From Nemertoderma westbladi (taxonomy: Eukaryota; Animalia; Xenacoelomorpha), in the NCBI GenBank assembly GCA_032718475.1, contig JAUCBJ010008828.1, positions 1 to 64,000 on the forward strand: a stretch of 64,000 nucleotides of DNA. Reading direction: 5' to 3'. A program made the translations under genes and the position numbers. Shown piece by piece: positions 5,320-64,000 of this stretch. The notes under the pieces were generated by a model. That model did not search any database, had not been told where the DNA came from, and saw only the letters and a program-made list of their open reading frames with translations. How positions within the stretch are numbered: the first letter of the stretch is position 1; the number at the start of each line of letters is the position of its first letter.

Positions 5320-5371
5320 CTGGGGAATAAAGAGGAAAACTCACCTTCCCATGTCAATGAGGTAATAATAT

Positions 5372-17710: not shown

Positions 17711-17740
17711 GGTGGCAACAGTTCCTTTGCAATATATACT

Positions 17741-32802: not shown

Positions 32803-33289
32803 TCCGAACGTTCACTCGCTCACCTGCAAGGTGGTGCCTTACCAAGGCGCAATACAGATGAGTGATGTATCTAGGATGTTCTGTACAGTTCGATAATGGC
32901 CTACTTCTACTTAACTGCGCCTTTTAACCTAAATTATTCCTAATTAATTTTGAAGCTAGTAAATACACCCTAATTTCGATTTCTGTCCGTTACTTTTATT
33001 ATGTTCTAGAATAGCTTCCCTTGTGTTGCCACTATTTTACAATTTTCAGCCCTATTCTATTTATTTATTTATTTACTTTGATTCTACTGTCCTACTACTT
33101 GCTACTGCCTATGGATTACTCTATTCTCTAATCCACATTCTGGCCTACTCTGTGGGTCTATGCAGTACAGCAGTATACGTCGTGTGGCCACACGATTTAC
33201 CCAGCTGTACTCATATGCCCCCCTCTCGCTACTAACTGCTAACTAATATCTATATCTTATATACCCCTTTTACTTCTTACTTTCTCTCT

Positions 33290-33895
33290 TCTAACTAACG
33301 GTACTACGTACCCTCTAACTCTCTAACTAACTAACGGTACTACGTACCTTCTAACTCTCCTCTAACTATCGGTACTACGTACCCTCTAACTCTCTAACTA
33401 ATGGTACTACGTACCCTCTAACTCTCTAACTAACTATCGGTACTGCGTACCCTCTAACTCTCTAACTAACTATCGGTACTACGTACCCTCTAACTCTCTA
33501 ACTAACTATCGGTACTACGTACCCCCTAACTCTTCTAACTAACTATCGGTACTACGTACCCTCTAACTCTTTAACTAACTAACTAACGGTACTTACGTAC
33601 CCTCTAACTAACTCTCTAACTGGCGGTACTACGTACCTCCTAACTAACTAACTAACTAACGGTACTTACGTACCCTCTAACTAACTCTCTAACTGGCGGT
33701 ACTACGTACCTCCTAACTAACTAACTAACTAACGGTACTTACGTACCCTCTAACTAACTCTCTAACTAACTAGCGGTACCACGTACCCTCTAACTAACTT
33801 TCTAACTGGCGGTACTACGTACCTCCTAACTAACTAATTAACTAGGTACTACGTACCTTCTTACTAACTCTCTGCCTACTAACTGCGTACCTACC
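33290..33895. repeat. Internal tandem array of BEL element 1 (GGTACTACGTACC core + (CTAA/CTCT)n spacer, about 15 units)
   Basis: Seen directly between the pol stop and the extra ORF. The core is a short hairpin (GGTAC-TAC-GTACC). Confidence 0.9.
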
Positions 33896-42971: not shown

Positions 42972-45756
42972 CATATTATCTTATGTCAGGGCCCCAACCG
43001 CAGGTTATCGTGTTCGGAGAACCCGATTCTGTGCTCGGCCACGGAACTAGTCTTGCGCACGCCTTTATCTATCATCAGCCTTCGACAGGGTTAACTTCTC
43101 AAGATTAAACAGTATCCTATGGAATCAAACCTAAAGGTTGTAGGGTACCCCAACAATTAAAAAAAAGATTCTTATGACATACTTCCTATCAGGCTCGTTA
43201 TACCTCTGTGTAAGAAAAATACAGCAGGAAAACCGTATTCCTATAGAACTTGGATTATGACAGGGAAGTTGGCTATCACTGTTCTTCAGTAACGTCTATA
43301 TCGCATAACTATTCGATTACAAAGTTAACAGTAATTATTGAGTTCATGTGGGAAGCCTTTTATTCGGTATAATTAGTTATGGGGATGATATCATATTGTA
43401 ATCGCTAATCTCAAGACAGACGACAGCTCAGTCAGTCAGCAAGAAAGTCAATAGCTACTATGTGTTATACTTACTTAATAACTTAATCTTATAAAACAAA
43501 AGGACTCACTATCTTCTCATAAATAAAAAAGGGCGCAGTGCAACTGATATAATGTCTATGGGTTCCAGGGCATAAAATCACCCATAGATTTATTTTGGAA
43601 ATGTTTGTCCAGGTCGCGAGCGAGGCAGGTGTGGTAGAAGTAGATAGGTACATTTATACAACTGTCTTCAAACGAAATTGCTTTGAGATATTCCAGTCAA
43701 CTGACGAAGACAAATCCAACGATTATATATACAAGAATATTTGAACAATCACAATTATTGACAACCCACAAATTATTGAACAACCAGGAGCCATAAACAA
43801 GAACCAGGTTAAGAAAGATAGAAAATCTTAAAGTGGCCGACTACATCAGCCATGAGAAGTACGTGCAAGGTAAAATTGAAGCATCACAAACTGCTCACAT
43901 AAAGCAACAGTCAATACTCTTGCCTTACAAAATTAGCTATCTGGAAGGGAATATTGTGCTAAGGGGCGCCTAATAGCTGATAGTCCTGAAGAACATGTTT
44001 GGAATTGGACATATAGAACCAAGAAGTCCACCAGAATTAAAGTGATTTATACATAAACTAAACTACGAGATGATAGTGTCGTATAAATTTAATTAAAGTT
44101 CTTCCTTTATATTACTCTATCTACCTTATCATATTCGCTGTACTGCATAATTTTATTAATTTAGAGTAGAGGGATATGAGAGAATGTTGGACGTTATAAT
44201 TCCATCATAGTTGTTGTAGCTATTGATTCGGTCTTCAAGAAATCCCGTGTATATTGGTATCTGACTACAGTGTTCTATAGAAGCTGTAGATAAACTCAGC
44301 ATGATACGAATAACATATAGATAGCACGCTATGAACGACCAAATGTGTTGGATTAAATATATAATTATGTAAAAATAACATTTCGTACCATTCATTTATT
44401 TTTGAAACTGAGTGAGAGTGCATAATGTAGTTATCCCTAGGTCTAGCGAAGATGTTTTTGAGAAACAAAAATATGAAGATATTTTCGTAACAAAAACTGT
44501 AAATATTGTTTCAATATTCTGAATCCGGTGTAAAATTTGATTAGACGGACTACTGAAGCCACAATTGTCGCTTCATTTACTCATTGAGAACTTTAAACCT
44601 CAGAATTACACCTCAGAAGTATTTATTTTGAGTAAAATACCGGTTAAATTTCTTTAGAAATTGTCGTTTCATTATTGATTATAAATTTAGGATATTATAT
44701 ATAAATTATATATATTTTTTAAGAGAATCAGCACCCCATAGCGGGGTAAATATATTCTTATTGTTACTGCACAAAACTGAATTGATAAGGATATTGGAAA
44801 CAGCAGTAACACAGTAATAATACCATATATGTACGGTGCATTATAAAGTTAATAAAATAATTTAGAGTAAAAGGCCATGCAATAAAGTTATTAAAGATTA
44901 TTATTTATAAATATATTAAATAACAACAAAAGAAGATTATTGTTTGTTTTATTGCATGCTCATGCAGCTAGAATTATATTTAATTTTAAATTAAATGCGG
45001 GGGGGGGGGGGGGTGGCGGGGGGTGTACACAATTTTTGGACAACTCTTCGATTTATCACTCCCAGCGTTTCAAATATTTTTGGTTTTGGCTATAATTTGG
45101 AATAAAGTTACCTAAGATGCTATTCTACATTGATAGCTCAGAAAAATTTTATTTTTGGCTATTTAATATTATTTAAAGCTACAGTTAACAATGAAAAAAC
45201 GTGGTTGATAAGATGAGTTTTTTTATAAATAGTATTAAATGTTATTAACTAAAAATTTCAAAAGGTTGTCTATACTTTTATGCAGGGTTGCTATGTAGAC
45301 AGACATTTGTAGAAGTAGTAGGGTTATGAAGTTGACAATTTCCCAAAAAAATATTTGGCGATAATAGATCGTTCATTATGCATAGTAATAGTAATTTCAA
45401 TAGGTCTCCCTAAATGTAAATTGTTATAATTTGAAAAAGTAAAAGAGCTATTAAATACCCCCCCCCCCCCCCCCCCCCCCCACCCCCCTTAATTAGTTAT
45501 AACTTAGTATGGAATGGTGATATAGAATTACAATGAATTGCAGAAGTTACCAGAATTACAGAAGCCACCTGGACTAACAAATATATATAATAACATCATT
45601 GTAAAAAATAATATTGTTTAATTTAATTCTTCAACATTTTAACTGGTAAATTTGTATCAAATAATAACATCGATCTACACAACCTCGCTACTAACTAACT
45701 ACTAACTACTAACATCGATTTAATCAACTTCCATGGATAATGAGTGATTCATTAAA

Positions 45757-46463
45757 ATGATAATCATTATTGTTCTGCTTGTTACATTCCACACGGTAGC
45801 CACTCAGCTGAGTAACAACACAACCTCGCAGAAGACCACCACTGGTACACAACTCAGAATACCGGTCACACATGCCCCGAAGGTAGAAATTGGACACTGT
45901 CCTCAAAAAACATCGAGTTGCAAGAGATTTATGAAGCCAGGCTGCATAAGTTTATGAAAGCCAACGATTTAATTAAACCGGTTATCGACTGGTATGGCTG
46001 CCACACTTGTTCACTCATATCTGTGGTATTCAGTGCGTGGTCCGCTGAATACAAGGCTGATATTACATTCGAAGTAGAAGATTCATGGTGCTACTATGAA
46101 GAATATAAAGGCAACTGTCTACCTATGCCTGAAACAGGTTGTCTCTATTTTGCGAACGTGGTACTTCCAGAACATAAACCTGACCCAGACGACCCAAATG
46201 CTGTGAATCTCTTTGGGTTGATATCATATTACAACTACCTCCAGCTGGCACTCACTGTAACACACGAGACTTGCCAGTCTCAGTGCTGCAACGATGCGGC
46301 TTGCCCAGCTCCCGTATGGACTCACGAGAAAACCTCTACATCAGAAACCACTACCGAATACGTGCCGTTCACCTGGGGAAACGGATCGGCTAATGTCAAC
46401 CAAATGGTGACGTCTCATCTGGCTTGGGTCATCATTGTTGCCATAGTTCTCAGAGCGTTCTAG
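45757..46463 (+). CDS. Secreted, probably GPI-anchored Ly6/uPAR (quiver-like) cysteine-rich protein, copy 1; split over two frames (-1)
   Basis: Signal-like MIIIIVLLVTFHTVATQ, CHTC start, CQSQCCN end motif, Thr-rich stalk, GNGS plus hydrophobic tail, AATAAA at ~46494. Confidence 0.7.
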
Positions 46464-46691
46464 AATATAGGCCTAACTGAAGCTAAAACTTCAATAAATA
46501 AACAATCCATTTGGATCCACATATTCTAGGAACAAAAACCGTCTAGAAATCACTTCTAGAAATATTTATCGGAAATTCTTTATGGTGATTGATTCCAATT
46601 TCAAAGGTTGTGGGTTCGATTTATTATCCGGCAAAATTATGTTTATTATATATCTTCAATAATTATTTCAGGGGGGGGGGGGGGGGGGGGG

Positions 46692-48061
46692 GGTAGCACC
46701 CCCAAACAGAACCTCACATTTTGTTATCTCTGAACCCTAAAATTGGATGAAAATTATTTTTTGTGATACTAAACATCGTCTGGGGTGAAGTTTATGAATA
46801 GCCAAAGGAAATATTTTTAATCTGGCCTCAAAATGGCACTGCAATTGTGCCAAAAGTGCCTTTTGCGCCAAACACAATTTCAGAATATAAGTTCAGAAGA
46901 ATCCTGCAACCAATTCTTATATTTTTGGCCCTTTGATCTAAAGAGGCTCCGGAGCGTTTGAGGCAAAATTTCTTCAGAATTTATTGTCAAAGGTATTCTG
47001 AATAAGTGTACCAAATTTCAACTCATTTATAGTTTTAGGAACAATTTTCACATTTTTATTTAGTCAACAATAACGAAATTTTTCATCATTGCTAAAAATA
47101 TATCTAATAAAACAACTTTGTAGTATTTTTAGTCATATACAGTATGTACCGTGAGAGCCTTTTTGATGAAAAGGACCTTATTCAATTGTAATAACTATTT
47201 ACATCATTGTGTGTAAAGTAGCACTTTGCAGCGTTATGACCCGAGTTAATTTATGTACCGAGCGAGCGCAGCGCGGGAGGTTTACATAAATAACCAAGGG
47301 TCTTTAACGCTGAAAAGTGACCTTTGCAAGCAATTATGTATGTAATTTTGTTACATTATGTCAACTTATCACCGTTCGGTATTTGAAGAAAAGATTTTAA
47401 GGATACTCATTTATACATTTTAATCATGTACTATATCGAATATAAGTTAAATTTATTAACAGGTGCACTGGTACACAGTATTAATTATACATTTAAATCT
47501 AATTAAAGTTTATTGGAAGTTATCTCCTGCATGGATGTGATAAATCATTAATCCATCTTGACTATAGTCGACTGTAGCAAACTTAGTCACCGTCTTGTGT
47601 CCGTTCAGTTTTACTGAACACTGTCGTCACTTTCTTTCCTATTTTACTGTCTTCTATTGGACGTTTCGGCATAATGGAAAACAATATACTTTAAACAATT
47701 ATTTTTACATACAGTAGCTAGTCCTGTAGTCCCTTCACTGCCAACTGGATAATAAAGCAGCACTCATTAACATAAATGGAAATAAAAAATTCTGGAAAAC
47801 GGTAATGTTGTTTCCATGTCATTGATTACTTTGCAGCGTTACGAGAAATTCACCAGAACGCTGTAAAGTTGACATAAATGTAACAAAATATCGTGCTGCT
47901 AGAAGGCTTTTCAAAAATCAGACTAGCTCTTACGTTTTGGGTAATAACTTGAGTTTGAGAAACGATATGAGAAAACTGCTTGAGATTTGAAATCTCCATT
48001 AAATTCTGCACATAATAGGATTCAAAAATGTCGAAAATTATCGAATTAGGGGGGTGCTACC
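46692..48061. mobile_element. Non-autonomous DNA transposon with GGTAGCACCCCC...GGGGGTGCTACC ends and a nested MITE-like insert (~47200-47885); duplicated at ~55285-56590
   Basis: 12-bp terminal inverted match, no ORF, internal inverted CTTTGCAGCGTT/AACGCTG blocks. Confidence 0.55.
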
Positions 48062-48449
48062 ATGACCTACTACACCAACTGTATTATCACAATTCTGTTG
48101 GGCACAGCTTTGCAAAGTCGGCAATGACGTCCATGTGGGATCGAACTGGTGACCTTAGAGTTGGAAGTCTGACGCTCTAGTCTCTTTCCAACGACATGTT
48201 ATAGTAGGTCATCGTGCTACCTCCCCTCCCTCTCTTAAGTATTTAGCATAAACTCTCTAATAATAACTCAAATTTTCCGAAGCACACCCATTACGGTTCG
48301 CTGTTAACTCAGTACACATCCTTTATACTTTCCAATAAGGTTTCTCTAATTATTCAATCAATTTTGTTGATATTAAACATTCTCATTTAGCGATATTCTA
48401 TATTACTTTTCATTATGTTATGTTAATATCCCATTATTTACTTAATTAA

Positions 48450-49398
48450 TGTGACGGGATCCTGGTTGGCCTGGGATGCCCCCCCCCCCCCCCCTTTTTT
48501 TTTTTTACTTAGTGGTGCCTTTCCTACTTGCTGCCGCTCTAGAAGACTGACTGGCCGTAGGCCTGATAAAACTAGAGTTATGAGATTGCCGATAATATTA
48601 TAATAGTCTCAATAGTGTAGTTTACCGGTACAATATACTGTAGCACAAAGTCAGTAGTGTGGTATACGACATGCAGTGAAAACGGTTCACCTTCTTTACA
48701 GAGTCAATTGCCAACTGGTTACATAATGCACGTGATCGTTAATATAGGGAAAAATATATTGCCTATCTATCACATCTTTATAGTCCCATTGGCCTGTGGA
48801 TTTAATGTCTTATTATATTAGATATTATACTGTATTATAATACAGTATAAATTAATTAGTATTTTCAGTCTTTTTCGAGGTGATACGAGGTTGATTGCCA
48901 ATCAACCTCGTATCACCCCAATAACCGGGGCGACAAACCCCAAAGGGACACACACAGCGGGGGTCAGAGGTTACACCTCCGGGAGGGAGAGAGTGACAGC
49001 AGCCGGGGGAAACACTCCCAGAGAGATGGGAGGGCGAGAATTGGGTTATTAGCCAATGGGGGGGAGGCATCCACTGAGTAATGTAATACGGCCAACCAGT
49101 GCAATATATTACCAGTTATTGTTCCTCATTTATTTCACTCAGTTAGTCAGTTTAGTTAGGACAGAACGGTGACTTCTATTACCGTCCACTGCCGCCATCA
49201 TTCACTTATACTTTACCGGTACATTATTTCTTCACTCCAACAACTGTGTCTATGCTTATTCTATATCAGTCATATTATTCTATATCAGTCGACAAGATCA
49301 GAACTCTCAATCCAACTATAATAACTCTTTTCACTCACACGGCGGGGACGCGTAAATAGAACCACCGGGATAAATCGGGATTCTCGGATCCCGTCACA
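48450..49398 (+). mobile_element. Solo-LTR-like element related to BEL element 1 LTR (partial second copy at 56957-57307)
   Basis: TGTGACGGGATCC...GGATCCCGTCACA ends. The 3' ~500 bp aligns by eye to the sense strand of the element 1 LTR (GGCCAACC.GTGCAATATA, ACACGGCGGGGACGCGTAAA, GGATAAATCGGGAT). Confidence 0.8.
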
Positions 49399-50140
49399 AA
49401 GTCCAAGAAGTCCACCAGAATTAAAGTGATTTATACATAAACTAAACTACGAGATGATAGTGTCGTATAAATTTAATTAAAGTTCTTCCTTCATATTACT
49501 CTATCTACCTTATCATATTCGCTGTACTGCATAATTTTATTAATTTAGAGTAGAGGGATATGAGAGAATGTTGGACGTTATAATTCCCTCATAGTTGTTG
49601 TATCTATTGATTCGGTCTTCAAGAAATCCCGTGTATAACTACACCGCATTGTATATGTTGGTATCTGACTACAGTGTTCTATAGAAGCTGTAGATACACT
49701 CAGCATGATACGAATAACATTTAGATAGCACACTATGAACGACCCAATGTGTTGGATTAAATATATAATTATGTAACAAATAACATTTAAATCCGGTGTA
49801 AGATTTAATTAGACGGACTACTGGAGCTACAATATGTCGTTTCATTTACTCATTGAGAACTTTAAACCTCAGAATTACACCTCAGAAGTATTTATTTTGA
49901 GTAAAATACCGGTTAAATTTCTTTAGAAATTGTCGTTTCATTATTGATTATAAATTTAAGATATTATATATAAATTAAATACATTTTTTAAGAGAATCAG
50001 CACCCCATAGTGGGGTAAATATATTCTTATTGTTACTGCACAAAACTGAATTGATAAGGATATTGGAAACAGCAATAACACAGTAATAATACCATATCTG
50101 TACGGTGCATTATAAAGTTAATAAAATAATTTAGAGTAAA

Positions 50141-53100
50141 CTACTACTAGGTCGAGCGAACTCGGACAGTGGAAATGAGATCCTTCCAGGCTTCCCGATT
50201 CTCCATAGTTGTCGCAATTTCGTTTCTCTCAAGTTCAGTATCCCTTTCAAGTTGATCTATATATGTTATGGCAGGTCGTCCACGACTACGCTTTCCATGA
50301 GTTGGTTGCCAGAGAAGTAGATCTGGTATGACCTCGTCTTTACTTCGCCAGCAGTGCCCACTGAATCTTAATCTGCGTTCACGGAGGGTGGTTGATACAG
50401 GTGGTATTGTACCATAAAGCTCGGCGTTTGTCATGTGTTGTCTCCAGCTGATGTTTAGGGCTGCCCTTAGTAGTCTTGTGTAGCAACCATCAATTCGTTG
50501 TTCAAGTGATTTAGTCAGTGTCCAGGTCTCACCGCCGTATAAAAATACACTTTCCACTGTGGCTCGAAAGAACTTAGTCTTCAGGTGCCTGGAGAGATCT
50601 GATTTCCAGATGGTATCCATTTTTGATAGAGCTACCCAAGCCTTTGCTTTCCTAACTTCTATGTCCTTTTTGCTACTCTCTATCCATGATCCAAGGTACT
50701 GGAAGTCATCGACCTTCCTTAGTTGATTATTATCAATGGTTGTCAAGTTTCCATCAACATTAAAGGTCATGAATTCGGTCTTGGTAGCATTTATATGTAA
50801 TCCAACCTCCTTAGCAGCCCTCTCCACTTTATTTAGTAGAAGCTGTGCATCTGCTAGCGTATTAGAGAGCAGGGCGATGTCATCCGCAAAGTCGGTGTCT
50901 GTGACTGTAGTTGCCGGATATCTACTACTTCTGCGTTCTTGAAGTGTGAATCCCAGATCTTCACCCTTTGTGGCCGTCCTCATTGCGTAATCCAGCACAA
51001 TTACAAATAGTAATGGTGCTAATGTGTCACCTTGCAGTACGCCAGCCAGGATTGAGAAAAACTCAGTTTCACCATCTGGTGAGAGTACCTGCGCTTCTGT
51101 GTCACAATATAACAATCCAATGCCAGCAACAATTACTTCTGGTATTCCATAAGCTCTTAGGATTTCAAGCATTTTACCTCTATGGATGGAGTCGAATGCC
51201 TTCTTGAAGTCCACAAAAGTCATGACTGCGGGGAGATTCTTTGACTTAATTCCTTCAATCAGTCTCCGTAGTGCAAGTATCTGAGCTATTGTTGATCTAC
51301 TTGGTCGAAATCCGTTTTGGCTCTTACGCAGTAGTTTCTCTATGTGAGGCCTAATCCTATATAGAATCATTTTATTGTATATTTTGGCAGCTACCACAAG
51401 CAGACAGATCCCACGATAGTTTGTTGGTATGCCGAGGTCTCCTTTCTTGGGGAGAGGCTTTAGTTGACCTTTAGTCCAAATTGGTGGTGGCTTTTCCCCT
51501 TTTAACATCCGGTTGCAAACATTCAATAATGGTCTATTTAGCACTCCGGTTTTCCATACCTCCGCTGGGATTTCATCTAATCCACTCGCTTTATTATTGG
51601 ACATGCTTTTAATGCTTCTTTGGAGTTCGGCAGGTGTGAAGTCCCCTGTTTCTATAGGTAGTGTCTTGTCATATATTTTCCTTGTAGGGCTGACCTCGAT
51701 GTTTGGTGGCTGCCCAAGCAAGTTGCTGAAGTGATTTTTCCACTTCCCAACACGTTCTTCAGGACTATCGGCTTTGAGGCGCCCCTTTGCACAACTTTTC
51801 CGACCAGATACCTCATTTACAGTTTGCCAGGTAAGTCTTGATTGTTGCTGTATGTGAGCAGTTGTAATTGCTTCAGTTTTATCCTGTATGTACTTTTCCT
51901 GGCTGATGTTGTAGGCCAATTTAAGATCGTCCTTAGCTTTCTCAACCTTGTTAATGTTTTCGGTTGTTGGTTGTTCGGTTTTAACTTTGTAGGCTATCTT
52001 AAGATCTTCTCTCTTACAAGTAACCTCAGAGTTTTGCCATGGCACATACTGTTTTCGTTTAGGTTTCTGGGGGATATGCCTCTTAGCTGATTCCTTGTGG
52101 GCTGTTATTATATTCTGGTATATTGAATCGGTGGATTGGTCTTCATCCATTGACTGAAGTGCTTCAAAGCGGTTTCGAACTTCTACTGTATAAGCATCCT
52201 TTACAGCATTGTCAGTTCTGAGTTTCTCCCAGTCATAGTTGATTTGCTTGCTTGTCCTGGGTTTGCTGGCTCTCAAACTGAGTCTGATCTCTGCAGTCAC
52301 AATTCTGTGGTCCGAACCAATTAGGTTGAACGAGCTGTATGCCTCGCAGTTGATCATGCTATTTCGCCACTTTTTGTTTATAAGGATGTAATCCAGTTGT
52401 GCTTTGGTTCCATTAGGGTATTGAAAGGTCCATAGCTTCCCCTTACTCTTTTCGAATGTGTTGTTTGTTGGTATCAATTCACATTCTTCCATTAGGTCTA
52501 AAAGTAAGTACCCATTTCTGTTAGAACTGGTGTTATAGGTGTAACCCTTGATGTCTTCTGGGCCAATTTGCGCATTCAGGTCACCAGCAATGACTTTAAC
52601 ATTGTGTTTCGGGATGTCCTTAATAAGTCCAGTCAGTTCTTCATAAAACTTGACTGCTTGTTCTGGCTCTGATGCATTGGTTGGACTGTAGCAACATATA
52701 ACTGTTGTCTTGGGATTCCCATCAAATGTTGCGATCATAACCCTGGAATTTATAGATTCGATGTTGTTTAGGGTCTTAAGTGCAAATGGGCTTAGCAGAA
52801 TTCCTACTCCACCAATTGATGCATTGGCCGAGTTTCTTACTGCTGAGCTTGTTACTAACGTCCATCCATTTCCAATGTCATTGTACTTCATGGCAGTGTC
52901 TTCATGACAAATCCGATGTTCTTGGATGCAGATGATGTCGATGTTATATTCCATTGCCAGAGCGACCATGTCACCCTGTTTGCTCTGTGCTTTCAGCGTG
53001 CGTGCGTTCATTGTAGCAATCTTTAGTGTCTTTTTACATTTCAACAGGTTGGTTCTTCTTTCTTCTCTGTCTTCTGTTCCAGTAGCCAATTTATCGACCC

Positions 53101-53502
53101 CAGCCTGGTGTACCACTGAGGGACGCGGTCCTTGTTGACCCGGGCGACGACCGAGCCGGTATTTCTCCTGGAGGGTTCTCATACTCATATCTTTCAGTTG
53201 CGGGAGTAAACCGCTTGTGGTCGCAACTCCTACAAGCGTCTTCGCAGTAGGCCGCCGTTGGTTGATTACCTTCCGCCGACCTTGTCAGCATGTCTAGCCG
53301 TTGGTTGATTACCTTCCGCCTATTCATGGCCTACAGCCCTGCTGCCGACTGTAGGGGTCCATTTGTTACACCCTGAACCAAGTGTGCCTCCTGGGTTAGG
53401 TTACCTAACACTGGTAGAGGAGCATCCAGTATAGACAGGGCGGGGCTTGTATCATCTCTAATGCAGATGCGTATCAAGCCTTTGCCTTCAATTTTGCCTT
53501 TT
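50141..53502 (-). mobile_element. Full-length RTE-clade LINE with 11-bp TSD
   Basis: TTTAGAGTAAA duplicated at 50130-50140 and 53503-53513. Empty site visible in the paralog at ~44861. (TAG)3 tail. Confidence 0.96.
50147..53188 (-). CDS. RTE ORF: APE endonuclease + reverse transcriptase, intact (1013 aa)
   Basis: ATMNARTL, IQEHR, YSPT, GDLNA, LDYI, SDH; QNGFRP, DFKKAFD, GVLQGDTLAP, DFADD, FQYLGS. Confidence 0.96.
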   Translation of the reverse strand: MSMRTLQEKYRLGRRPGQQGPRPSVVHQAGVDKLATGTEDREERRTNLLKCKKTLKIATMNARTLKAQSKQGDMVALAMEYNIDIICIQEHRICHEDTAMKYNDIGNGWTLVTSSAVRNSANASIGGVGILLSPFALKTLNNIESINSRVMIATFDGNPKTTVICCYSPTNASEPEQAVKFYEELTGLIKDIPKHNVKVIAGDLNAQIGPEDIKGYTYNTSSNRNGYLLLDLMEECELIPTNNTFEKSKGKLWTFQYPNGTKAQLDYILINKKWRNSMINCEAYSSFNLIGSDHRIVTAEIRLSLRASKPRTSKQINYDWEKLRTDNAVKDAYTVEVRNRFEALQSMDEDQSTDSIYQNIITAHKESAKRHIPQKPKRKQYVPWQNSEVTCKREDLKIAYKVKTEQPTTENINKVEKAKDDLKLAYNISQEKYIQDKTEAITTAHIQQQSRLTWQTVNEVSGRKSCAKGRLKADSPEERVGKWKNHFSNLLGQPPNIEVSPTRKIYDKTLPIETGDFTPAELQRSIKSMSNNKASGLDEIPAEVWKTGVLNRPLLNVCNRMLKGEKPPPIWTKGQLKPLPKKGDLGIPTNYRGICLLVVAAKIYNKMILYRIRPHIEKLLRKSQNGFRPSRSTIAQILALRRLIEGIKSKNLPAVMTFVDFKKAFDSIHRGKMLEILRAYGIPEVIVAGIGLLYCDTEAQVLSPDGETEFFSILAGVLQGDTLAPLLFVIVLDYAMRTATKGEDLGFTLQERRSSRYPATTVTDTDFADDIALLSNTLADAQLLLNKVERAAKEVGLHINATKTEFMTFNVDGNLTTIDNNQLRKVDDFQYLGSWIESSKKDIEVRKAKAWVALSKMDTIWKSDLSRHLKTKFFRATVESVFLYGGETWTLTKSLEQRIDGCYTRLLRAALNISWRQHMTNAELYGTIPPVSTTLRERRLRFSGHCWRSKDEVIPDLLLWQPTHGKRSRGRPAITYIDQLERDTELERNEIATTMENREAWKDLISTVRVRST

Positions 53503-54345
53503 TTTAGAGTAAAAGGCCATGCAATAAAGTTATTAAAGATTATTATTTATAAATATATTAAATAACAACAAAAGAAGACTATTGTTTGTTTTATTGCATG
53601 CTCAGGCAGCTAGAATTATATTTAATTTTAAATTAAATGCGGGGGGGGGGGGGGGGGGGGGGTGTACACCATTTTTGGACAACTCTTCGATTTATCACTG
53701 CCAGCGTTTCAAATTTTTTTGGTTTTGGCTATAATTTGGAATAAAGTTACCTAAGATGCTATTCTACATGATAGCTCAGAAAAATTTTATTTTTGGCTAT
53801 TTATATTATTTAAAGCTACAATTAACAATGAAAAAACGTGGTTGCTAAGAGGAGTTTTTTTATAAATAGTATTAAATGTTATTAACTAAAAATTTCAAAA
53901 AGTTGTCTATACTTTTATGCAGGGTTGCTATGTAGACAGACATTTGTAGAAGTAGTAGGGTTATGAAGTTGACAATTTCCCAAAAAAATATTTGGCGATA
54001 ATAGATCGTTCATTATGCATAGTAATAGTAATTTCAATAGGTCTCCCTTAATGGAGATAGCTATAACTTGAAAAAGTAAAAGAGCTATTAAATAGCCCCC
54101 CCCCCCCCGACCCCCCTTAATTAGTTATAACTGAGTATGGAATGGTGATATAGAATTACAATGAATTGCAGAAGTTACCAGAATTACAGAAGCCACCTGG
54201 ACTAACAATTATATAATAACATCATTGTAAAAAATAATATTGTTTAATTTAATTCTTCAACATTTTAACTGGTAAATTTGTATCAAATAATGAACTACTA
54301 ACATCGATTTAATCCACTTCCATGGATAATGAGTGATTCATTAAA

Positions 54346-55052
54346 ATGATAATCATTATTGTTCTGCTTGTTACATTCCACACGGTAGCCACTCAGCTGA
54401 GTAACAACACAACCTCGCAGAAGACCACCACTGGTACACAACTCAGAATACCGGTCACACATGCCCCGAAGGTAGAAATTGGACACTGTCCTCAAAAAAC
54501 ATCGAGTTGCAAGAGATTTATGAAGCCAGGCTGCATAAGTTTATGAAAGCCAACGATTTAATTAAACCGGTTATCGACTGGTATGGCTGCCACACTTGTT
54601 CACTCATATCTGTGGTATTCAGTGCGTGGTCCGCTGAATACAAGGCTGATATTACATTCGAAGTAGAAGATTCATGGTGCTACTATGAAGAATATAAAGG
54701 CAACTGTCTACCTATGCCTGAAACAGGTTGTCTCTATTTTGCGAACGTGGTACTTCCAGAACATAAACCTGACCCAGACGACCCAAATGCTGTGAATCTC
54801 TTTGGGTTGATATCATATTACAACTACCTCCAGCTGGCACTCACTGTAACACACGAGACTTGCCAGTCTCAGTGCTGCAACGATGCGGCTTGCCCAGCTC
54901 CCGTATGGACTCACGAGAAAACCTCTACATCAGAAACCACAACCGAATACGTGCCGTTCACCTGGGGAAACGGATCGGCTAATGTCAACCAAATGGTGAC
55001 GTCTCACCTGGCTTGGGTCATCATTGTTGCCATAGTTCTCAGAGCGTTCTAG
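54346..55052 (+). CDS. Ly6/uPAR-like GPI-anchored protein, copy 2; same frame split
   Basis: Translation identical to copy 1 in both frames. Confidence 0.7.
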
Positions 55053-57307
55053 AATATAGGCCTACCTGAAGCTAAAACTTCAATAAATAAACAATCCATT
55101 TGGATCCTACATATTCTAGGAACAAAAACCGTCTAGAAATCACTTCTAGAAATATTTATCGGAAATTCTTTATGGTGATTGATTCCAATTTCAAAGGTTG
55201 TGGGTTCGATTTATTATCCGGCAAAATATGTTTATTATATATCTTCAATAATTATTTCAGGGGTGGGGGGGGGGGGGGGGGGGGGTAGCACCCCCAAACA
55301 GAACCTCACATTTTGTTGTCTCTGAACCCTAAAATTGGATGAAAATTATTTTTTGTGATACTAAACATCGTCTGGGGTGAAGTTTATGAATAGCCAAAGG
55401 AAATATTTTTAATCTGGCCTCAAAATGGCACTGCAATTGTGCCAAAAGTGCCTTTTGCGCCAAACACAATTTCAGAATATAAGTTCAGAAGAATCCTGCA
55501 ACCAATTCTTATATTTTTGGCCCTTTGATCTAAAGAGGCTCCGGAGCGTTTGAGGCAAAATTTGTTCAGAATTTATTGTCAAAGGTATTTTGAATAAGTG
55601 TACCAAATTTCAACTCATTTATAGTTTTAGGAACAATTTTCACATTTTTCTTTAGTCAACAATAACGAAATTTTTCATCATTGCTAAAAATATATCTAAT
55701 AAAACAACTTTGTAGTATTTTTAGTCATATACAGTATGTACCGTGAGAGCCTTTTTGATGAAAAGGACCTTATTCAATTGTAATAACTATTTACATCATT
55801 GTGTGTAAAGTAGCACTTTGCAGCGTTATGACCCGAGTTTATTTATGTACCGAGCGAGCGCAGCGAGGGAGGTTTACATAAATAACCAAGGGTCTTTAAC
55901 GCTGAAAAGTGAGATTTGCAAGCAATTATGTATGTAATTTTGTTACATTACTGTATGTCAACTTATCAGCGTTGGGTATTTTGAAGAAAAGATTTTAAGG
56001 ATACTCATTTATACATTTTAATCATGTACTATATCGAATATAAGTGAAATTTATTAACAGGTACACGGTATTAATTATACATTTAAATCGAATTAAAGTT
56101 TATTGGAAGTTATCTCCTGCATAGTTGTGATAAATCATTAATCCATCTTGACTATAGTCGACTGTAGCATACTTAGTCACTGTCTTGTGTCCGTTCAGTT
56201 TTACTGAACACTGTCTTCACTTTCTTTCCTATTTTAGTGTCTTCTATTGGACGTTTCGCCATAATGGAATACAATACACGTTAAACAATTATTATTTACA
56301 TTCAGTAGCTAGTCCTGTAGTCCCTTCACTGCAAACTGGATAATAAAGCAGCACTCATTAATATAAATGGAAATAAAAAATTCTGGAATACGGTAATTTA
56401 AGTTGTTTCCATGTCATTGATTACTTTGCAGCGTTCCGTCCTATAGGCCGCAACGAGAAACTCACCAGAACGCTGTTAAGTTGACATATATGTAACAAAA
56501 TATCGTGCTGCTAGAAGGCTTGTCAAAAATCAGACCAGCTCTTACGTTTTGGGTAATAACTTGAGTTTGAGAAACGATGAGAAAACTGCTACCATGACCT
56601 ACTACACCAACTGTATTATCACAATTCTGTTGGGCACAGCTTTGCATTGGAAGTCTGACGAACTGGTGACCTTAGAGTTGGAAGTCTGACGCTCTAGTCT
56701 CTTTCCAACGACATGTTATAGTAGGTCATCGTGCTACCTCCCCTCCCTCTCTTAAGTATTTAGCATAAACTCTCTAACTCAAATTTTCCGAAGCACACCC
56801 ATTACGGTTCGCTGTTAACTCAGTACACATCCTTTATACTTTCCAATAAGGTTTCTCTCATTATTCAATCAATTTTGTTGATATTAAACATTCTCATTTG
56901 GCGATATTCTATATTACTTTTCATTATGTTATGTTAATATCCTATTATTTACTTAAGGTGACGGGATCCTGGTTGGCCTGGGATGTCCCCCCCCCCCTTT
57001 TTTTTTTTTTTTTTTACTTAGTGGTGCCTTTCCTACTTGCTGCCGCTGTAGAAGACTGACTGGCCGTAGGCCTGATAAAACTAGAGTTATGAGATTGCCG
57101 ATATTATTATAATAGTCTCAATAGTGTAGTTTACCGGTACAATATACTGTAGCACAAAGTCAGTAGTGTGGTATACGGCATGCAGTGAAAACGGTTCCCC
57201 TTCTTTACAGAGTCAATTGCCAACTGGTTACATAATGCACGTGATCGTTAATATAGGGAAAAATATATTGCCTATCTATCATATCTATACATAGTCCCAT
57301 TGGCCTG

Positions 57308-57867
57308 TCGTGGTTGACATGTACCGAACAACAAGAGTCCCACAAGAAATGAAAACAAATAAGTTGGTGCCAGTTCCCAAGCAGGGCAACCTAACACTCT
57401 ATGGTTCTTTTCGGGGAATCTCATTGATCTCGATTGCTGCAAAGCTACACAATAGGATTCTAATAAATGGGGATCCCATTGAGAGACTGCTCCGTGGAAA
57501 TCAGAATGGGTTCCGTAAAGGTCGTGGGACCATGGAGCCCATTTTGGCACTTAGAAGGATAATTGAAGAGTTATCAAAAAAGAAAGACAGCAAGGCCTTT
57601 GATTCAGTCTCTCGCTCACGTATGTTCAGCATACTTTCATTATATGGGATTCCTGATGAATTATTGCAGCAATAAGATCAGTATACGATGGTTCGACAAC
57701 ATTTGTGTCTACTGTTGACGGTGACACAGAACCATTTGAAGTGTTATGGGGCGTCCTCCAAGGAGACACACTTGCACCATTCTTGTTCATTATTGTGGTT
57801 GACTACGTTCTACGCATGTCCTTAGATTATTATAATGATGATGGGGTGATGATAACTCCACCTACTG
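57308..57867 (+). mobile_element. RTE RT fragment (same family as 14203-16563) with internal deletions
   Basis: Near-identical to 14205-14687. Cut at 57867 by the next LTR. Confidence 0.9.
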
Positions 57868-58548
57868 TGTAAAAGCTTTTGCGTAATTAGCCGGTTATTA
57901 TCCCCGTAAAGTACTCTGTGGTTGGTTTACCAGGCATAAAAAGGCCGTGTCCTTGCTGTACTGGTGTTTTGGAGGACATAAAAGCCATTTCTTCTGTATT
58001 TGTACTTTAGAGGACATAATCTGCAATTTCGTGACGTAAAAGCTCGATACTCTTGAAAACAGTGTCGCTACCATGACGACGGCTAACGGCTGATATTGCC
58101 ACGTTGCCCCATAGCCCTGCCTTCTGTATCTGCCAATAGGATTTGAGTTGGTTTTGATTTTGACCTATCACAGATCTACTGAACTGAATTTCCTATCTGT
58201 ATGCTCATTCTCTGTGGTGGGTGAGATCTTTGTAGAATAAGGGTAGCTGGTATTCTTATAGTTATTCTTATCAGTTTTTAGTGTTGTTGGTGATTCTAAG
58301 CCAGGAAGAACGGCTTTAGCCCTACACTAGTAGGCTTAATTATAAGGACATATATCCGTTATCTGCATTTATCACAACATAACATACCATACCTAATCAA
58401 ACAACCTGTGCATACTTTATATTGTTATACTGCTATTTACTGTCAGTTCTTCATAATATGGTTGATGAATTATTATATTTGGAATAACGATAAATAACCC
58501 CGAAACCCAATATTCTTGATATACCGAAGGTAGGAGAGAAGGGTTACA
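57868..58548 (+). repeat. Putative 5' LTR of BEL/Pao element 2
   Basis: Starts TGTAA exactly where RTE homology stops and ends TTACA (terminal inverted match). The partner LTR is outside the window, so the right boundary is inferred. Confidence 0.65.
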
Positions 58549-59221
58549 TATAACAATTGTGACTTATGTTAAAGTGGTTTGAAGTGAATCTAATGTTATT
58601 TGATAGACCCTACATGATTCGGTCCGTGTTCCTTTTATATGTGACTAAAATCAGTGAAGATCGGCAGATTAGTGTGCAGTATTGTGCAGCATTGTGTATG
58701 AGTGAGACTGATAACGAAGCATTTCCTAAAGAATGCGCCATATATGTGAATTGTAACTAAGCCATATCGTTGTGAGTAGTTTAAGTCATAACTCTGTTTA
58801 TATAGATAGAGCGCCACGTCCTAAAGGAACTGTTAATATTCCCCGAAGGTGAATAATATTGTCAGAGATTATATAATACTGTCAGTCGAATAATACATTA
58901 GGCTTACATAGCAATACGATTAAGCTGTCGAAATCAATCTCCCGGGTATATCCAACGGGTGAATGATCGCGCACAGATTGGTTTCAACTAGTGTAGTGAA
59001 TCAAATACTTGTTAGAGGCTAAAGCGATTTATTATCTAGAAGACATCCTAATTTGGCGGGTTAAACTGCCAAAGGTCTGAAAGCGCGAACAATAACGGAT
59101 ATTTAGTCTGTATTGCAGTGTAGGCATTAAATACAGTTTAATATTGTTCTGGTAAGAACAATAACGGATATAGCTTCTTTATTGCAGTAAGCAATAAAGT
59201 TGAAAGTACCGGTTGACCGGT

Positions 59222-60070
59222 AAACCTGAACCGGTACTTCTGTAGGTCAGTAGGCCCAACTGCCAGAACCGGTACTGCTGTAGATCCGTAGGTCCAACTG
59301 TCAGAACCGGTACTTCTGTAGGTCCGTAGGCCCAACTGTCCTAACCGGTACTTCCAGTATAAGTACAATAGTATTATTCGATTGTGATATATTGTATATT
59401 GTAGGCTGCTAAGGGATTAGGGATTGATCAACCCTTATTCCTTTGTATGGTTTACTTATTTCTGTCAGTTTTATTTGTTTGTAGGCCAATATTGAGCAGA
59501 AGGCGTGTAAGCCTGATCAGATTGTACAGACAATTTGTAGGCTGAGCTGTTGTCTGATTGCTGTTAAGTCCGAACGGATTGCAGTGTGTGTAGATCACCT
59601 GTCCGATAAAGAACGGTTAGGAAGTAGGGGCAGCCAATACTGTAAGGTAAACCCCCAACTAAAGAATAAGTCGTACTACTGGGTTAGAACGCATACTACC
59701 TAATCATTTCGGAGTCTGCATGTCCTGTAGTTTATTTGGGCTTGAGAGTAGTCTGCCATCGTTTAGTCTGTACTTTGTTTGTGTAGTCGGTACAGGTAGC
59801 GTATAATATTTTATTTAGATAATTTGTAGGCTGGATAGTTGTCTGGCTGATTGTTGGGTTTGAGGAAATTTCGGTGTGTGTAAAGCATCTGTCCGATAAA
59901 GAACGGTTAGGAAGTAGGGGCAGCAAAAGCTGTAAGGTAAACCCCCATCTAAAGAATAAGTCGTACTACTGGGTTAGAACGCATACTACTTAACCATTTC
60001 GGAGTCTACATATACCGTAGTTTGTTTAAGCTTGATAGTAGTCTGTCAGTATTTGGTCTGCATTTTGTTT
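59222..60070 (+). repeat. Repeats in the long 5' leader of BEL element 2 (38-bp x ~3.5 at 59222-59355; ~300-bp duplication ~59530-59770 / ~59820-60065)
   Basis: GAACCGGTACTTCTGTAGGTC.GTAGG.CCAACTG units; CTGTCCGATAAAGAACGGTTAGGAAGTAGGGGCAGC occurs twice. Confidence 0.85.
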
Positions 60071-61425
60071 GAATGGTCTGTACGCGTAGCGTAATATTTA
60101 TTATTCAGAGTTTATGCGATTATTCGCAACATTCATATCCCCAAGATTATTCCTACAGTAATTGTGTTTGTTATACATACCGTTATAGTTAAACTAACCC
60201 CGGTACTATACGGGCTGCTCGGCGTAGGTAAAGACTGGTGATTTTGTGCACCGGTCACTCCAGCAGATACCGTGGTTCTTTTAGCTGTTCAAGTATTTTT
60301 AACTACTGATTATTTGTTATACAAGTACTTGTACCTAATTTAGGGTTTAGTGTACAGTACTTTCCGAAAGTAATTATTGTAGGCATTATATTTGTGTTGT
60401 AAAGTGGTTGATAGGCACATACGTTAGCTCTATTAACTTCTAGGTAGGAACACTCCGTGATACATAACGTAGTACCTATAGCGATACGGCTATAGGTCGT
60501 CAGGCGGTGGTATTTTCCTATCTGGACAGCGCAGTGTATTTACTACTACTTATTATTTTCAAATACCGTAGTAACCTGTCCGTTGTAATAACCAGATTTC
60601 TAACCCTTTGTTAGGCTGGTTTGTAGACTTCTTGTAAAATTACCCTGGAAATTCGTATTTTGTGTTTTTGTAAATTTTTGTGTTTATTTAGAGATTGTAA
60701 TCTCACCCGAATTGTACGTAATTAGTAGTATTAAGTAACTTAGGTAAATTAGCATTATTTGTTTTAGTGTCCTATAAGTAACACTTCACTGAAAGCGCAC
60801 CGCTTTGTGTAGTGATTACTCCCCAGAAATAATAACATTTATTTCAAACATTGACAAAAACCCATTTCAACGGGTATATATATATTATAAATCAACTCAA
60901 ACGATTTATAAATAGTAGGCCTGCCATACACCCATTAGGTCTCAATATCAGTTGGACTACTGCTCAAATAACGGTAATAAAGTAAGTAAAGTAACCAAGT
61001 AACCCTAAAATTCAGAAATTCAATTATTTAAAATAATTGGTATACCGGTATTTACGATAGGCCTATTATCTTTATTTCTATAAATTTTAGGTTGAAATCA
61101 TACCGGTACTCTGTAATTAATTCTAGTCTGTAATTATACTTATATATATACACTATAAGTGTAAACTGCATACCGGTATTCATGATAGGCCTATTATATA
61201 TTTATATATATTTGTGCTAAAATTACCTACCGGTATTCTGTGATAAACTAGTCTGTAATAATACTTATATATACTATAAGCATACCGGTATTCTAATATA
61301 TTATATATATCACGCTACATTGAGTAGCAGTATCGGTAATTAATTACTAGGCTAACAGTGATACTGAATTACTAGACTTGCTTTAACTGTAATATAGCAG
61401 TAGGCATTCAACTGTACCATCAAAC

Positions 61426-64000
61426 ATGTCTGACACAACCCAATCACTGTCGGATAGTCTCCTAGATAGTGTTAGAATGACTGTTAGACAGTGTCTTAAA
61501 AAGATCAGTGACCCAGATCCAAGTATAGAACATCCTAGATCCAAGTCGAAGTCACCTCCTGCTGTAAGAAAGGCCATCCCTACTGTAGTAATCTCAGACC
61601 CTAGGCTAGTCCAACATCGTAGGTCTATCATTGGCACTCGGGCCCAAGTCAAGCGGGATCAAGAAGCAGCGGAACCTCAACAACCCGCGAGCCAAGAACT
61701 TACTTCTCAACGGCCCGATAGCTCCAGTAGTTCGGATACTGTTGAGCGGACGCCCGAACGCGGAGCGAAGATGGCGGATAAGGTTTATGATGAGCGGCCA
61801 ACCTATGAAGAATCAACCGACGCCACTTCTTCTCAAGAAGAAAGCGAAGTGACAGCAGAGAAACCGCATAAGAGGGATGCCATTGACATTTATCTGTCAG
61901 ACTATCAACGTTTTTTAGGTGATGACGAGTTGAGGAGAAGGTTAGAGGGACTTAGCCCTAATAGTGAAGGAACCAAGCTTGTGTTGGATGCCATCGATGT
62001 GGAAATGAGGGCTGCGAATCAGGCTAAATTTGATGAACAACTCCGCATCACACGAGTCCAGGAAGAACAAGTAAAGAAAAAACGTATAGAAGACAGAAAG
62101 GCAGCGGCGGTAGCAGCAGCAGTGGCAGCTGCAGAAGCAGAAACAAAAGCGGCAGTAGCAGCAGCAAAAGCAGCGGCCGAAGCAGAAACAAAAGCGGCAG
62201 CGGCAGTGGCAGCGGCAGAGACAAAAGCGGCAGTAGCGGCAGCGGAGGCGGTGGCCGAAGCGGAAAGAAAAGCGGCGGAGGCAGTGGCAGAAGCCGAACG
62301 GAGAGCGACTGAAGAAACCACCCAATTAGAATTGGAAAACATTCAGGAGAATCAAGACTGCATAAATAAACAGTTAACAGCTAGTAATATGCAGATGATG
62401 AATCGATCTACTCCCAAAAGACAGGGATATACATCATCTGAGGAAGGCGATACCACCGATACTGAAGGCAAGGGAAATAGATCTCGTCTAAGTAGACGTA
62501 AAAGAACATTCCACCGTCAGAAATTGCCTGATTTGCCTCCAGCTGTTAGAAGGCAACTAAATAATACCAACTTAGGTAGTGCAGAGCCCACAGACCAAAT
62601 AATTAAAATAGAAAGACTCCCTACTATAGTAGATGAGCCTGAAATAATTAGGCCTGTTCTTGAAATCACCCCTTCGGTGATAGACACACCTGTGCTCCCT
62701 GAAACTACCTCTAAATTCCCTCTGCATAGCACTAAGCTACCTGTGCCCCGTAGAACTGCCCAGGAGACAGTTCAGGTTCTGGACCCCGAGCGAAATACTC
62801 CTGATTTGTCGCCCGTTGTCCCTCGTCCGCCCGCTACAACGTTGGCGACTCCCGCTTCGGCGGTCGAATGGGTGGACGAGAGAAGGCGGGGGATGGATCT
62901 CCTGCTCGGGCAGATGCAGGAGACTGTTCAGCAATTTAAGGGCACAGTAAGGGAAAGTAGGCTAGAGTTGCAAGAAGTGCAGCAAAGTATCGCGCTAGAA
63001 CGCGATAAATTAGTAAATACCCAAAAGGGTATACCACCACCCTCTGTAACAATGTGTCAACCTGTTAGGTCTGAAGTATCGCATGCGCAAGGTGTGGAGC
63101 CTACACGCATCTATACTGCTAGCGAAGTAGAAACTCCTATAGTGAACCCTATTAAGGGTAATTATAGACCTGTTGATAATGACATTCCCTATAGAACTGA
63201 TCATAATCCGAGAAATTTATATACCGATAACTCGATATTAAATAACACGATGGCCCAAGAAAGTTTTACGCGTCAAATGGCTAGAACCGAAGCCCGGCAA
63301 GCGGTAAAGGTGGGAGAGATCGTCAAGTTCAATGGAGATGAGATGAAATGGTTACCTTTTAATGAATATTACAAAGATAACATACAGAACTCTGTACTAT
63401 CTAATGGAGAAAAACTTAGATACCTCATCGAGTGCTTGGAAGGATCTCCCAAGTCAATGGCGTTAAAATTTATTGGACATCCAGATGGATTAAGACAAGT
63501 TTGGGATACACTAAACATCAGGTATGGTAATAGGACTAACATAGCTAGGTATTTATATGCGAAATTAATGGCGCCCCGAAAGTTTCTTAGCAGCGGGATT
63601 ATAGAGTTTTCCGATGAGATTCAGGAGATCTGTAGACAACTAGATTGGTTAGGTAAGTCTCATGAATACCAGAATTCTATGGTTGTAGGAGCCTTAGCAT
63701 CTACTTTGCCCAAGGGTGGAGTAGGTACACGCTGGGACAAGAAGGTGTTATATATGATGGAACAACAACAACGAGACCCTACCATGGCTGATCTCATGTC
63801 ATTCTTGGATAGCGAGGTGAAATTACAGCTCATAAAGCAGTCCAGAGAGAAGACAGCGGAAAGTAAGGTAAGTGAGAAACCCGTTTCTAGGAGAAGGGTA
63901 ACACCAGTATGTTATACCGACGACGGTGAAAGCCAAACTTCTCAAGGAGAGGACAGCGGGAAAGACACTGACAGATCTTATTATGTCAATAAAATGCCTA
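61426..64000 (+). CDS. BEL/Pao gag (element 2), long open frame running off the window
   Basis: ATG at 61426 (MSDTTQSLS...), Ala-rich coiled coil, then IVKFNGDEMKWLPF...LSNGEKLRYLIECLEGSPK...VWDTLNIRYGN (BEL gag core). No stop seen; absent from the ORF track because it is unterminated. Confidence 0.88.
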   Translation, partial: MSDTTQSLSDSLLDSVRMTVRQCLKKISDPDPSIEHPRSKSKSPPAVRKAIPTVVISDPRLVQHRRSIIGTRAQVKRDQEAAEPQQPASQELTSQRPDSSSSSDTVERTPERGAKMADKVYDERPTYEESTDATSSQEESEVTAEKPHKRDAIDIYLSDYQRFLGDDELRRRLEGLSPNSEGTKLVLDAIDVEMRAANQAKFDEQLRITRVQEEQVKKKRIEDRKAAAVAAAVAAAEAETKAAVAAAKAAAEAETKAAAAVAAAETKAAVAAAEAVAEAERKAAEAVAEAERRATEETTQLELENIQENQDCINKQLTASNMQMMNRSTPKRQGYTSSEEGDTTDTEGKGNRSRLSRRKRTFHRQKLPDLPPAVRRQLNNTNLGSAEPTDQIIKIERLPTIVDEPEIIRPVLEITPSVIDTPVLPETTSKFPLHSTKLPVPRRTAQETVQVLDPERNTPDLSPVVPRPPATTLATPASAVEWVDERRRGMDLLLGQMQETVQQFKGTVRESRLELQEVQQSIALERDKLVNTQKGIPPPSVTMCQPVRSEVSHAQGVEPTRIYTASEVETPIVNPIKGNYRPVDNDIPYRTDHNPRNLYTDNSILNNTMAQESFTRQMARTEARQAVKVGEIVKFNGDEMKWLPFNEYYKDNIQNSVLSNGEKLRYLIECLEGSPKSMALKFIGHPDGLRQVWDTLNIRYGNRTNIARYLYAKLMAPRKFLSSGIIEFSDEIQEICRQLDWLGKSHEYQNSMVVGALASTLPKGGVGTRWDKKVLYMMEQQQRDPTMADLMSFLDSEVKLQLIKQSREKTAESKVSEKPVSRRRVTPVCYTDDGESQTSQGEDSGKDTDRSYYVNKMP

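Follow-up and report, generated by a model that had tools for sequence, protein, structure and literature searches.

How does a retrotransposon of the BEL/Pao superfamily begin reverse transcription when the bases beside its 5′ long terminal repeat (LTR) lack the TGG of a tRNA-type primer site? The question is raised by a 64,000-nucleotide (nt) stretch of DNA from Nemertoderma westbladi (contig JAUCBJ010008828.1 of assembly GCA_032718475.1, positions 1 to 64,000, forward strand), here called the window, which carries two such elements: element 1 on the minus strand and element 2, which starts at 57868 on the plus strand. In its accessible text, the ICTV (the international committee for virus taxonomy) profile of Belpaoviridae describes a primer site, 18 nt long, to which tRNA-Arg or tRNA-Gly pairs with its 3′ end, and a host-tRNA-primed replication (PMC8742986). 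A sequence-only reading of the window had instead proposed that the bases after the LTR of each element pair with a stretch inside that same LTR, and that element 2, sharing the geometry but not the letters, independently supports the mechanism.

The analysis reported here puts at roughly 45% the probability that the nine bases after the likely LTR end of element 2 are a self-primer binding site like that of Tf1. Under this proposal, the genomic RNA would fold back and bring LTR bases 58421-58429 into a duplex with 58549-58557. Cleavage where the LTR strand of this duplex ends, on its 3′ side, would expose a 3′-OH facing the first base outside the LTR, which the reverse transcriptase would extend through the unique 5′ part of the LTR (U5) into minus-strand strong-stop DNA, in the manner of fission-yeast Tf1. 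The mechanism is plausible because element 1 and its relatives repeat the same geometry with different letters. It is they that appear to support it best, and element 2 seems to add moderate support that is not independent.

The match beside the LTR of element 2

The 5′ LTR of element 2 probably spans 57868..58548 on the plus strand (681 nt, TGTAA...TTACA), with a confirmed start and an end placed by the TG..CA termini and a 5-nt terminal inverted repeat. It closes with GGGTTACA at 58541-58548 (the CA being 58547-58548) and is followed directly by the candidate primer site TATAACAAT at 58549..58557 (+). The sequence beyond the LTR reads TATAACAATTGTGAC, and the TGG expected of a tRNA-Arg or tRNA-Gly site is absent there. 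TATAACAAT is the exact reverse complement, over 9 nt and with no extension possible on either side, of ATTGTTATA, which lies within the LTR at 58421..58429 (+) and overlaps a TATA-like TATAT at 58418. The distance from this internal complement to the LTR end is 119 nt, and the pairing starts at +1. Thus, the letters named in the sequence-only reading were all found at their places, as were the complement about 120 nt upstream, beginning at the first base beyond the LTR, and the lack of TGG after 58548.

The chance level of this match was gauged by treating each position of either strand of the window as if an LTR ended there and seeking a match in the 681 nt before it. An exact reverse complement of at least 9 nt at +1 was encountered at 1578 of 126598 positions (1.25%), and at 0.37% when restricted to within 200 nt. 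Dinucleotide shuffles of the LTR reached a 9-nt exact match at +1 in 25 of 2000 cases, while once G·U pairs were allowed 147 of 2000 were as good as the window's own letters.

The accessory features described along with the match are also present, but at chance level. The stem closing U5 (58495..58546, +) pairs TAACCC at 58495-58500 with GGGTTA at 58541-58546 in the minimum-free-energy fold, and the fold of 58415-58575 holds both this stem and the pairing of the internal complement; yet its z is -0.51 and 61 of 200 shuffles are as stable. Similarly, the second near-partner said to mirror element 1 exists as ATAACGAT at 58484..58491 (+), where it is a near-copy in the same sense as the primer site, but 973 of 1000 shuffles give one as good. 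Only the 9-mer at +1 stands out in element 2, and it does so moderately, at a chance level of about 1% if 58548 is the LTR end.

Where the LTR begins and ends

The start of element 2 can be fixed with some precision. It splits the coding fragment of a host non-LTR reverse transcriptase of the LINE (long interspersed nuclear element) type at 57600..57867 (+), which is 97% identical to 14479-14687. The uninterrupted host copy (14479-14687 onward) retains this identity up to 57867 and diverges at 57868, where the element opens with TGTAAAAGC inside the reverse-transcriptase region of the non-LTR retrotransposon. Eighty-six contigs of the public run X1 read on beyond 57867, representing the empty site, and one contig of run X4 joins 57868 to a different upstream sequence, i.e., another insertion with the same terminus. 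The uninterrupted copy, the empty-site contigs and the X4 contig together confirm the 5′ end at 57868, in line with the start given in the sequence-only reading; the 5 nt before it (57863-57867) read TACTG.

The other end is inferred. Among the 148 CA dinucleotides between 58018 and 61390, only those at 58548 and 58908 show a terminal inverted repeat of at least 5 nt with the head of the LTR (TGTAA/TTACA), and 58548 is the sole candidate that combines such a repeat with a following reverse-complement match of at least 8 nt. TGG does not occur at +0 or +1 behind any of the 148, and the tRNA-type site behind a differently placed LTR end, for which the sequence-only reading had allowed, was therefore not encountered. 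Similar closing letters recur among relatives, with ...GGTTACA ending the LTR of L042 and ...GTTACA that of L023. Polymorphisms in the family copies cluster at the junction of the LTR and the primer site (58541-58555): in X1 the changes A>C at 58548 and T>A at 58549 are almost equally deep (82721 and 85427 of ~357000-377000, about 23%), and they co-occur in the one X5 contig, the pair preserving a CA one base further on, while T>G at 58549 accounts for about 26% of the X1 depth.

The boundary was not confirmed by contig depth, which when summed is a poor measure and was judged unreliable. In X1 it amounts to 1.2-1.4 million over 58450-58533, 0.6-0.7 million over 58534-58557 and 1.2-1.6 million over 58570-58665, running unbroken across 58548 from about 58425 to past 58680, and it is uneven along the leader. 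Loose contig ends at 58548/58549 do not figure among 24 of the 69 entries for contigs covering 58330-58680 in four public runs, a result that is uninformative at this coverage and because repeats interrupt short contigs in any case.

The same geometry in element 1 and its relatives

Element 1 carries LTRs of the form TGTTAGC...GTCACA at 42971-42442 (-) and in a copy starting near 29556, both flanked by ATATG as a 5-bp target site duplication (TSD). Because both LTRs are present and ATATG stands on both sides, the LTR end is fixed independently here. At +1 lies GTAACTAAAA, which over its 10 nt pairs exactly with TTTTAGTTAC, found 162 nt upstream at 42612-42603, and again there is no TGG. Such a match has a background of 0.55% in the window and turned up in 5 of 2000 shuffles. 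A direct copy in U5 resembling the primer site is not significant in this element (97 of 1000 shuffles as good). Its gag-pol is of the BEL/Pao type, with Peptidase_A17, DUF1759, integrase and DUF5641. Thus, the claim that the two elements share a geometry with different letters held up. The description of element 2 as unrelated in sequence was upheld for the primer-site letters but not for the proteins: the two gags are 23% identical over 178 amino acids (aa), by which the elements are better seen as distant relatives than as simply unrelated.

A scan of metagenome contigs based on the reverse transcriptase furnished 80 BEL/Pao loci with 30-40% identity to element 1, and in 7 of these the LTR ends could be defined by comparing both LTR copies. 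TGG follows the LTR in none of the 7. An exact complement of at least 9 nt at +1 is seen in two of them, the L019/L018 family (9 nt, the complement lying 91 nt upstream in a 455-nt LTR) and L023 (11 nt); with per-locus backgrounds of 0.02-0.44%, the chance of finding 2 or more of 7 with a match at +1 is 1.2e-4. In a third, L030, a 10-nt complement starts at +5. A wider survey took in the 43 loci with at least 250 nt upstream of a long open reading frame (ORF) and allowed loops of 50-320: inverted repeats of at least 9 nt with a downstream arm starting in GT numbered 10 upstream of gag versus 1 in equal-length controls from within ORFs. In L051, L076 and L078 such arms come directly after ...CA.

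The letters involved are family-specific, as in AGTTTTTAC/GTAAAAACT, AGTGTTTAC/GTAAACACT, CAGTTTTCGAC/GTCGAAAACTG, AGTTCTCAC/GTGAGAACT and TAGCTTTGAC/GTCAAAGCTA, and these differences argue against one shared host primer. Between element 1 and L030 both sides have changed in a matched fashion (TTTTAGTTAC/GTAACTAAAA versus TTTTCGTTAC/GTAACGAAAA), and between L019 and L076 both sites are kept within sequence that is 78% identical overall. A direct copy in U5 resembling the primer site is not significant in most relatives, with L023 alone standing out (7 of 1000 shuffles).

Two groups of relatives display the complement in a split form. A canonical intron (GTAAGT...Y-tract AG) lies inside the LTR of L023/L026 (536 nt) and of L030 (117 nt), present in one LTR copy on the contig and precisely missing from the other (L026:1-700 with L023:6780-7110; L030:1-214 with L030:6935-7265). 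The exon joints, of CGATGT to TTTAC and of AGAT to TTTTCGTTAC, complete an 11- or 14-nt complement of the primer site. No such complement split by GT..AG was found in elements 1 and 2.

Transcription signals

Self-priming requires both that the complement lie in the 5′ part of the RNA and that the poly(A) site lie downstream of it, and the placement of transcription signals thus bears on the proposal. In element 1, a TATAA (42705) stands 30 nt before a TCAGT (A at 42675), and that A is 63 nt before the complement on the minus strand, so that the complement would be transcribed. L026, one of the relatives, has a TATATAAA box some 120 nt upstream of the exon joint. The predicted start is 60-95 nt upstream of the complement in these two elements. 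AATAAA or ATTAAA downstream of the complement is absent from the LTRs of both element 1 and element 2.

Evidence against the self-primer and rival explanations

Several observations on element 2 and its relatives weigh against the proposed self-primer. The first concerns the letters of the family. Three DNA runs under one organism label contain the family of element 2 in great abundance, and a run under a second label also has it; position 58555 in these is mostly G (531397/562020 depth units in X1, 379462/393349 in X3, and the entire depth in X4, 514.6, and X5, 40.1). The window's A is thus a minority letter, with about 95% of the family depth carrying G. With this G the pairing to T58423 becomes G·U, leaving 8 Watson-Crick pairs and one G·U, which is equalled by 203 of 2000 shuffles (~10%). 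The sequence-only reading had named the common occurrence of such 9-mers in shuffled LTRs as the finding that would undo it, and the answer is divided: they are rare when exact but not with the majority G and G·U pairing. The window's A falls within a CpG and may be ordinary decay; it is also the look expected of a primer-copied site.

On the other side of the pairing, contigs that cover the internal complement have no variants at or above 5% within 58421-58429. Many family members seem nonetheless to be without the window's full complement, because 21 contigs (16 from X1, 2 from X3, 2 from X4 and 1 from X5) turn to unrelated sequence upstream of 58425, i.e., inside it. Further switch points lie at 58415/58416 and 58461. 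By all these switches, the block shared by the family begins within or just after the complement, which fits a border between U3 (the unique 3′ part of the LTR) and R (the repeat of the transcript ends) in this place, but also a simple turnover of U3.

The transcription signals of element 2 add to this. The sole canonically spaced pair of TATA box and initiator in its LTR consists of TATAT at 58418 and, 27 nt after it, the initiator-like TCAGTT at 58443..58448 (+, A at 58445; a motif match only). This pair is overlapped by the complement and predicts a start downstream of it, by which the complement would fall outside the 5′ end of the RNA. An alternative TATAA at 58341 would put the start upstream of the complement. 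On balance, the motif evidence leans slightly against transcription of the complement. The duplex itself is weak, at -7.9 kcal/mol, and binding to the 18-nt stretch is as good or better in 284 of 300 shuffled LTRs; this test is, though, uninformative for AT-rich sites because any short GC-rich pairing beats such a duplex.

Further counterpoints arise from the boundaries and the relatives. No second copy of 57868-61500 that might be the 3′ LTR occurs within the window, and the LTR end at 58548 is to that extent unverified; the 2:1 excess of LTR over leader is missing in X1 and X3, where the depth ratio is about 1, against 2-6 in X4; and the association of LTR and gag in element 2 is itself a matter of inference. 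Among the relatives with defined ends, four of the seven (L014, L042, L048 and L059) have no exact complement of at least 8 nt at +0 to +3. The unfiltered survey, counting all inverted repeats of at least 10 nt upstream of gag, gave 12 versus 11 in controls and hence no enrichment, for which reason the signal in the relatives hinges on position and the GT start.

A first alternative, which we regard as unlikely yet serious, is that the 9-mer is a chance match between AT-rich sequences and that the real primer is a host RNA, such as a tRNA fragment or half, pairing at or near 58549. The majority G with its G·U pair, the duplex no better than shuffles and the overlap of the complement with a TATA-like motif all fit with it, and half-tRNA primers are known in copia lineages according to the part of the source available (PMC6317226). 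Exact Watson-Crick pairing over 9 nt at +1, however, has a background of just 1.25%, and the recurrence of the geometry with different letters in element 1 and several families of relatives is not what one host primer would yield. Neither a tRNA gene in the whole window (none by ARAGORN) nor an Rfam match at E up to 1 within 57500-61500 was found nearby, a search whose scope was the window and not the host tRNA set.

Alternatively, the pairing might be real and selected as an RNA structure, serving to mask the primer site or in dimerization or packaging of the genome, with the primer being something else. We consider this distinctly improbable. It draws on element 1, where the internal complement belongs to an imperfect inverted repeat of about 22 nt with U5 (42613-42592 and 42482-42460, -), and the predicted fold favors this U5 partner over the primer site (z = -2.38, a stability equalled by 4 of 200 shuffles). 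Retroviruses, too, reportedly form stems that join U5 to the primer-site region, judging by the title of Lin and Levin 1998 as cited in PMC4600332, and this counts in the same direction. Against it, no alternative primer site is visible, with TGG lacking both after the candidate LTR ends and in the seven relatives. Moreover, the pairing begins at exactly +1 in element 1, element 2, L019, L023, L051, L076 and L078, which a primer needs but a mere stem does not.

The least probable of the three is that the repeat from 57868 ends elsewhere or belongs to another, e.g., non-autonomous, element, the BEL gag at 61426 having lost or never had this LTR: an ORF-free leader of 2.9 kb that is unusual next to element 1 and the relatives, a depth continuous over 58548 and uneven along the leader, and the second CA with a 5-nt terminal inverted repeat at 58908 speak for it, but 58548 alone has both inverted repeat and complement, its closing letters recur in L042 and L023, the paired changes at 58548/58549 preserve CA, and other LTR elements have leaders that are likewise long and contain tandem repeats, according to the available part of the source (PMC3286476).

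The self-primer binding site thus stays our preferred account of the nine bases, with the case resting chiefly on element 1 and the relatives. The sequence-only reading went too far in taking element 2 as independent support, given the inferred LTR end, the minority letter at 58555, the weak duplex, the accessory features at chance level and the TATA overlap.

Leader, gag and further content of the window

Downstream of the candidate primer site, element 2 has a 2.9-kb leader (58558..61425, +) with no ORF above 92 aa. It includes tandem duplications at 59528-60109, 61042-61308 and 59228-59352, with periods of about 290, 128 and 76 nt. A gag-type ORF follows at 61426..63999 (+) and runs off the window; DUF1759 (PF03564), the gag domain typical of BEL/Pao, is found at residues 646-774 of the frame from 61393 (E = 4.7e-14), and as the window ends inside gag, pol domains are seen in element 1 only. 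Coding sequence in element 1 and the relatives sits close behind the LTR, the distance ranging from tens of nt to a few hundred, against 2.9 kb in element 2. On account of this long ORF-free leader, the LTR of element 2 is only likely to belong with the gag ORF. Searches with the reverse-transcriptase alignment and the element 2 gag revealed no relatives in viral contigs, and tblastn against the 80 metagenome loci gave no close relative of its gag, the best match having 26% identity.

In element 1, open frames of 303 and then 281 aa, in frames other than that of the 2275-aa gag-pol into which they lead, extend over 42411-40742 (-), beginning about 30 nt past the LTR end. They have no Pfam match and could be either a separate leader ORF or part of the gag-pol itself, as a long N-terminal extension that frameshifts have disrupted. 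A further ORF, of 222 aa, lies between pol and the 3′ LTR (32062-32730, -), overlapping a 622-aa ORF in another frame (30267-32135) with CCHC-like cysteines. As a lead only, the Atlas clusters nearest to the 222-aa ORF (scores of 0.88-0.89) show a PF01612 3′-5′ exonuclease domain in 16-40% of members; for the ORFs after pol, Pfam gave nothing better than E = 0.2, and a comparison with PDB sequences at E up to 10 gave no match. A satellite-like array with a period of 36-37 nt is also present inside the element at 33279-33850, between pol and the downstream ORFs.

The window at large is eukaryotic, repeat-rich DNA. Satellite-like arrays occupy 1200-7400 (periods of 29 and 36 nt) and 8000-9150 (period of 25 nt). 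Several non-LTR retrotransposon copies lie in 44019-57867 and 14102-19861, with Exo_endo_phos and RVT_1 at 50147-53284 (-) and RVT_1 at 17696-19861. A duplication with a period of about 8.6 kb relates 45143-48778 to 53780-57287. By contig depth in the public runs, the non-LTR families of the window are very abundant in the host genome.

Implications and comparison with known systems

A broader proposal would be that BEL/Pao elements self-prime with their own leader RNA, element 2 being a sequence-unrelated instance, and that the primer comes from within the LTR transcript and has to be cut or trimmed back to where the duplex ends, possibly with the aid of an element-encoded 3′-5′ exonuclease of the kind hinted at after the pol of element 1. 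This we advance tentatively and hold less firmly than the assignment of the nine bases itself. If true, it would make BEL/Pao a third LTR superfamily with self-priming, beside gypsy and copia lineages. It would also change BEL/Pao annotation, since tools that search for tRNA primer sites would miss such elements or misplace their boundaries, and would alter models of BEL/Pao replication and views on the origin of priming strategies in reverse-transcribing elements. Element 2 is one added data point for this and does not carry the case alone. A full-text literature search, from whose coverage subscription journals mostly fall out, found no papers tying BEL/Pao to self-priming.

The pairing of the self-primer in Tf1 spans 11 nt. 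That in element 2 is 9 nt and is here read from sequence alone, with cleavage and priming being proposals. Self-priming has been shown experimentally for Tf1 and inferred for Tj1 and the Tf1/sushi group, as far as the accessible text of the source goes (PMC4600332). Tf1 and Tf2 of Schizosaccharomyces pombe, Tj1 of S. japonicus and the Tf1/sushi elements of Ty3/gypsy resemble the present elements in having no tRNA-type site and in that the sequence beside the 5′ LTR can pair with LTR-derived RNA of the same element lying upstream (same source and extent), which in element 2 takes the form of the exact 9 nt at +1. The superfamily differs, element 2 being BEL/Pao by its DUF1759 gag and element 1 also by its Peptidase_A17. 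A chromovirus-type pol of Ty3/gypsy, as descent from Tf1/sushi would entail, was not found; the domains are of the BEL/Pao type, and the nearest proteins carry PF05380. A further difference is that the complement in Tf1 is the 5′ end of the mRNA (PMC4600332, in the same portion), whereas in element 1 and L026 the predicted start would lie 60-95 nt upstream of it.

A parallel might also be struck with the plant Tcn1 and the TAR copia lineage, whose self-priming was likewise inferred from sequence while their relatives are tRNA-primed; these differ in having plant hosts and in belonging to other superfamilies, and the available part of that source mentions no BEL/Pao case (PMC6317226). With canonical BEL/Pao elements (Belpaoviridae, Semotivirus), the present ones share the DUF1759 gag, the TG..CA LTRs and, in element 1, the 5-bp TSD. 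They depart from the tRNA-primed scheme, as the accessible profile gives it (PMC8742986), in that elements 1 and 2 and all seven relatives with defined LTR ends have no TGG. Finally, the splice-junction self-primers suggested by L030 and L023/L026 belong to the same superfamily and place the complement similarly relative to the LTR end, but there it is assembled across an intron, whereas in elements 1 and 2 it is contiguous.

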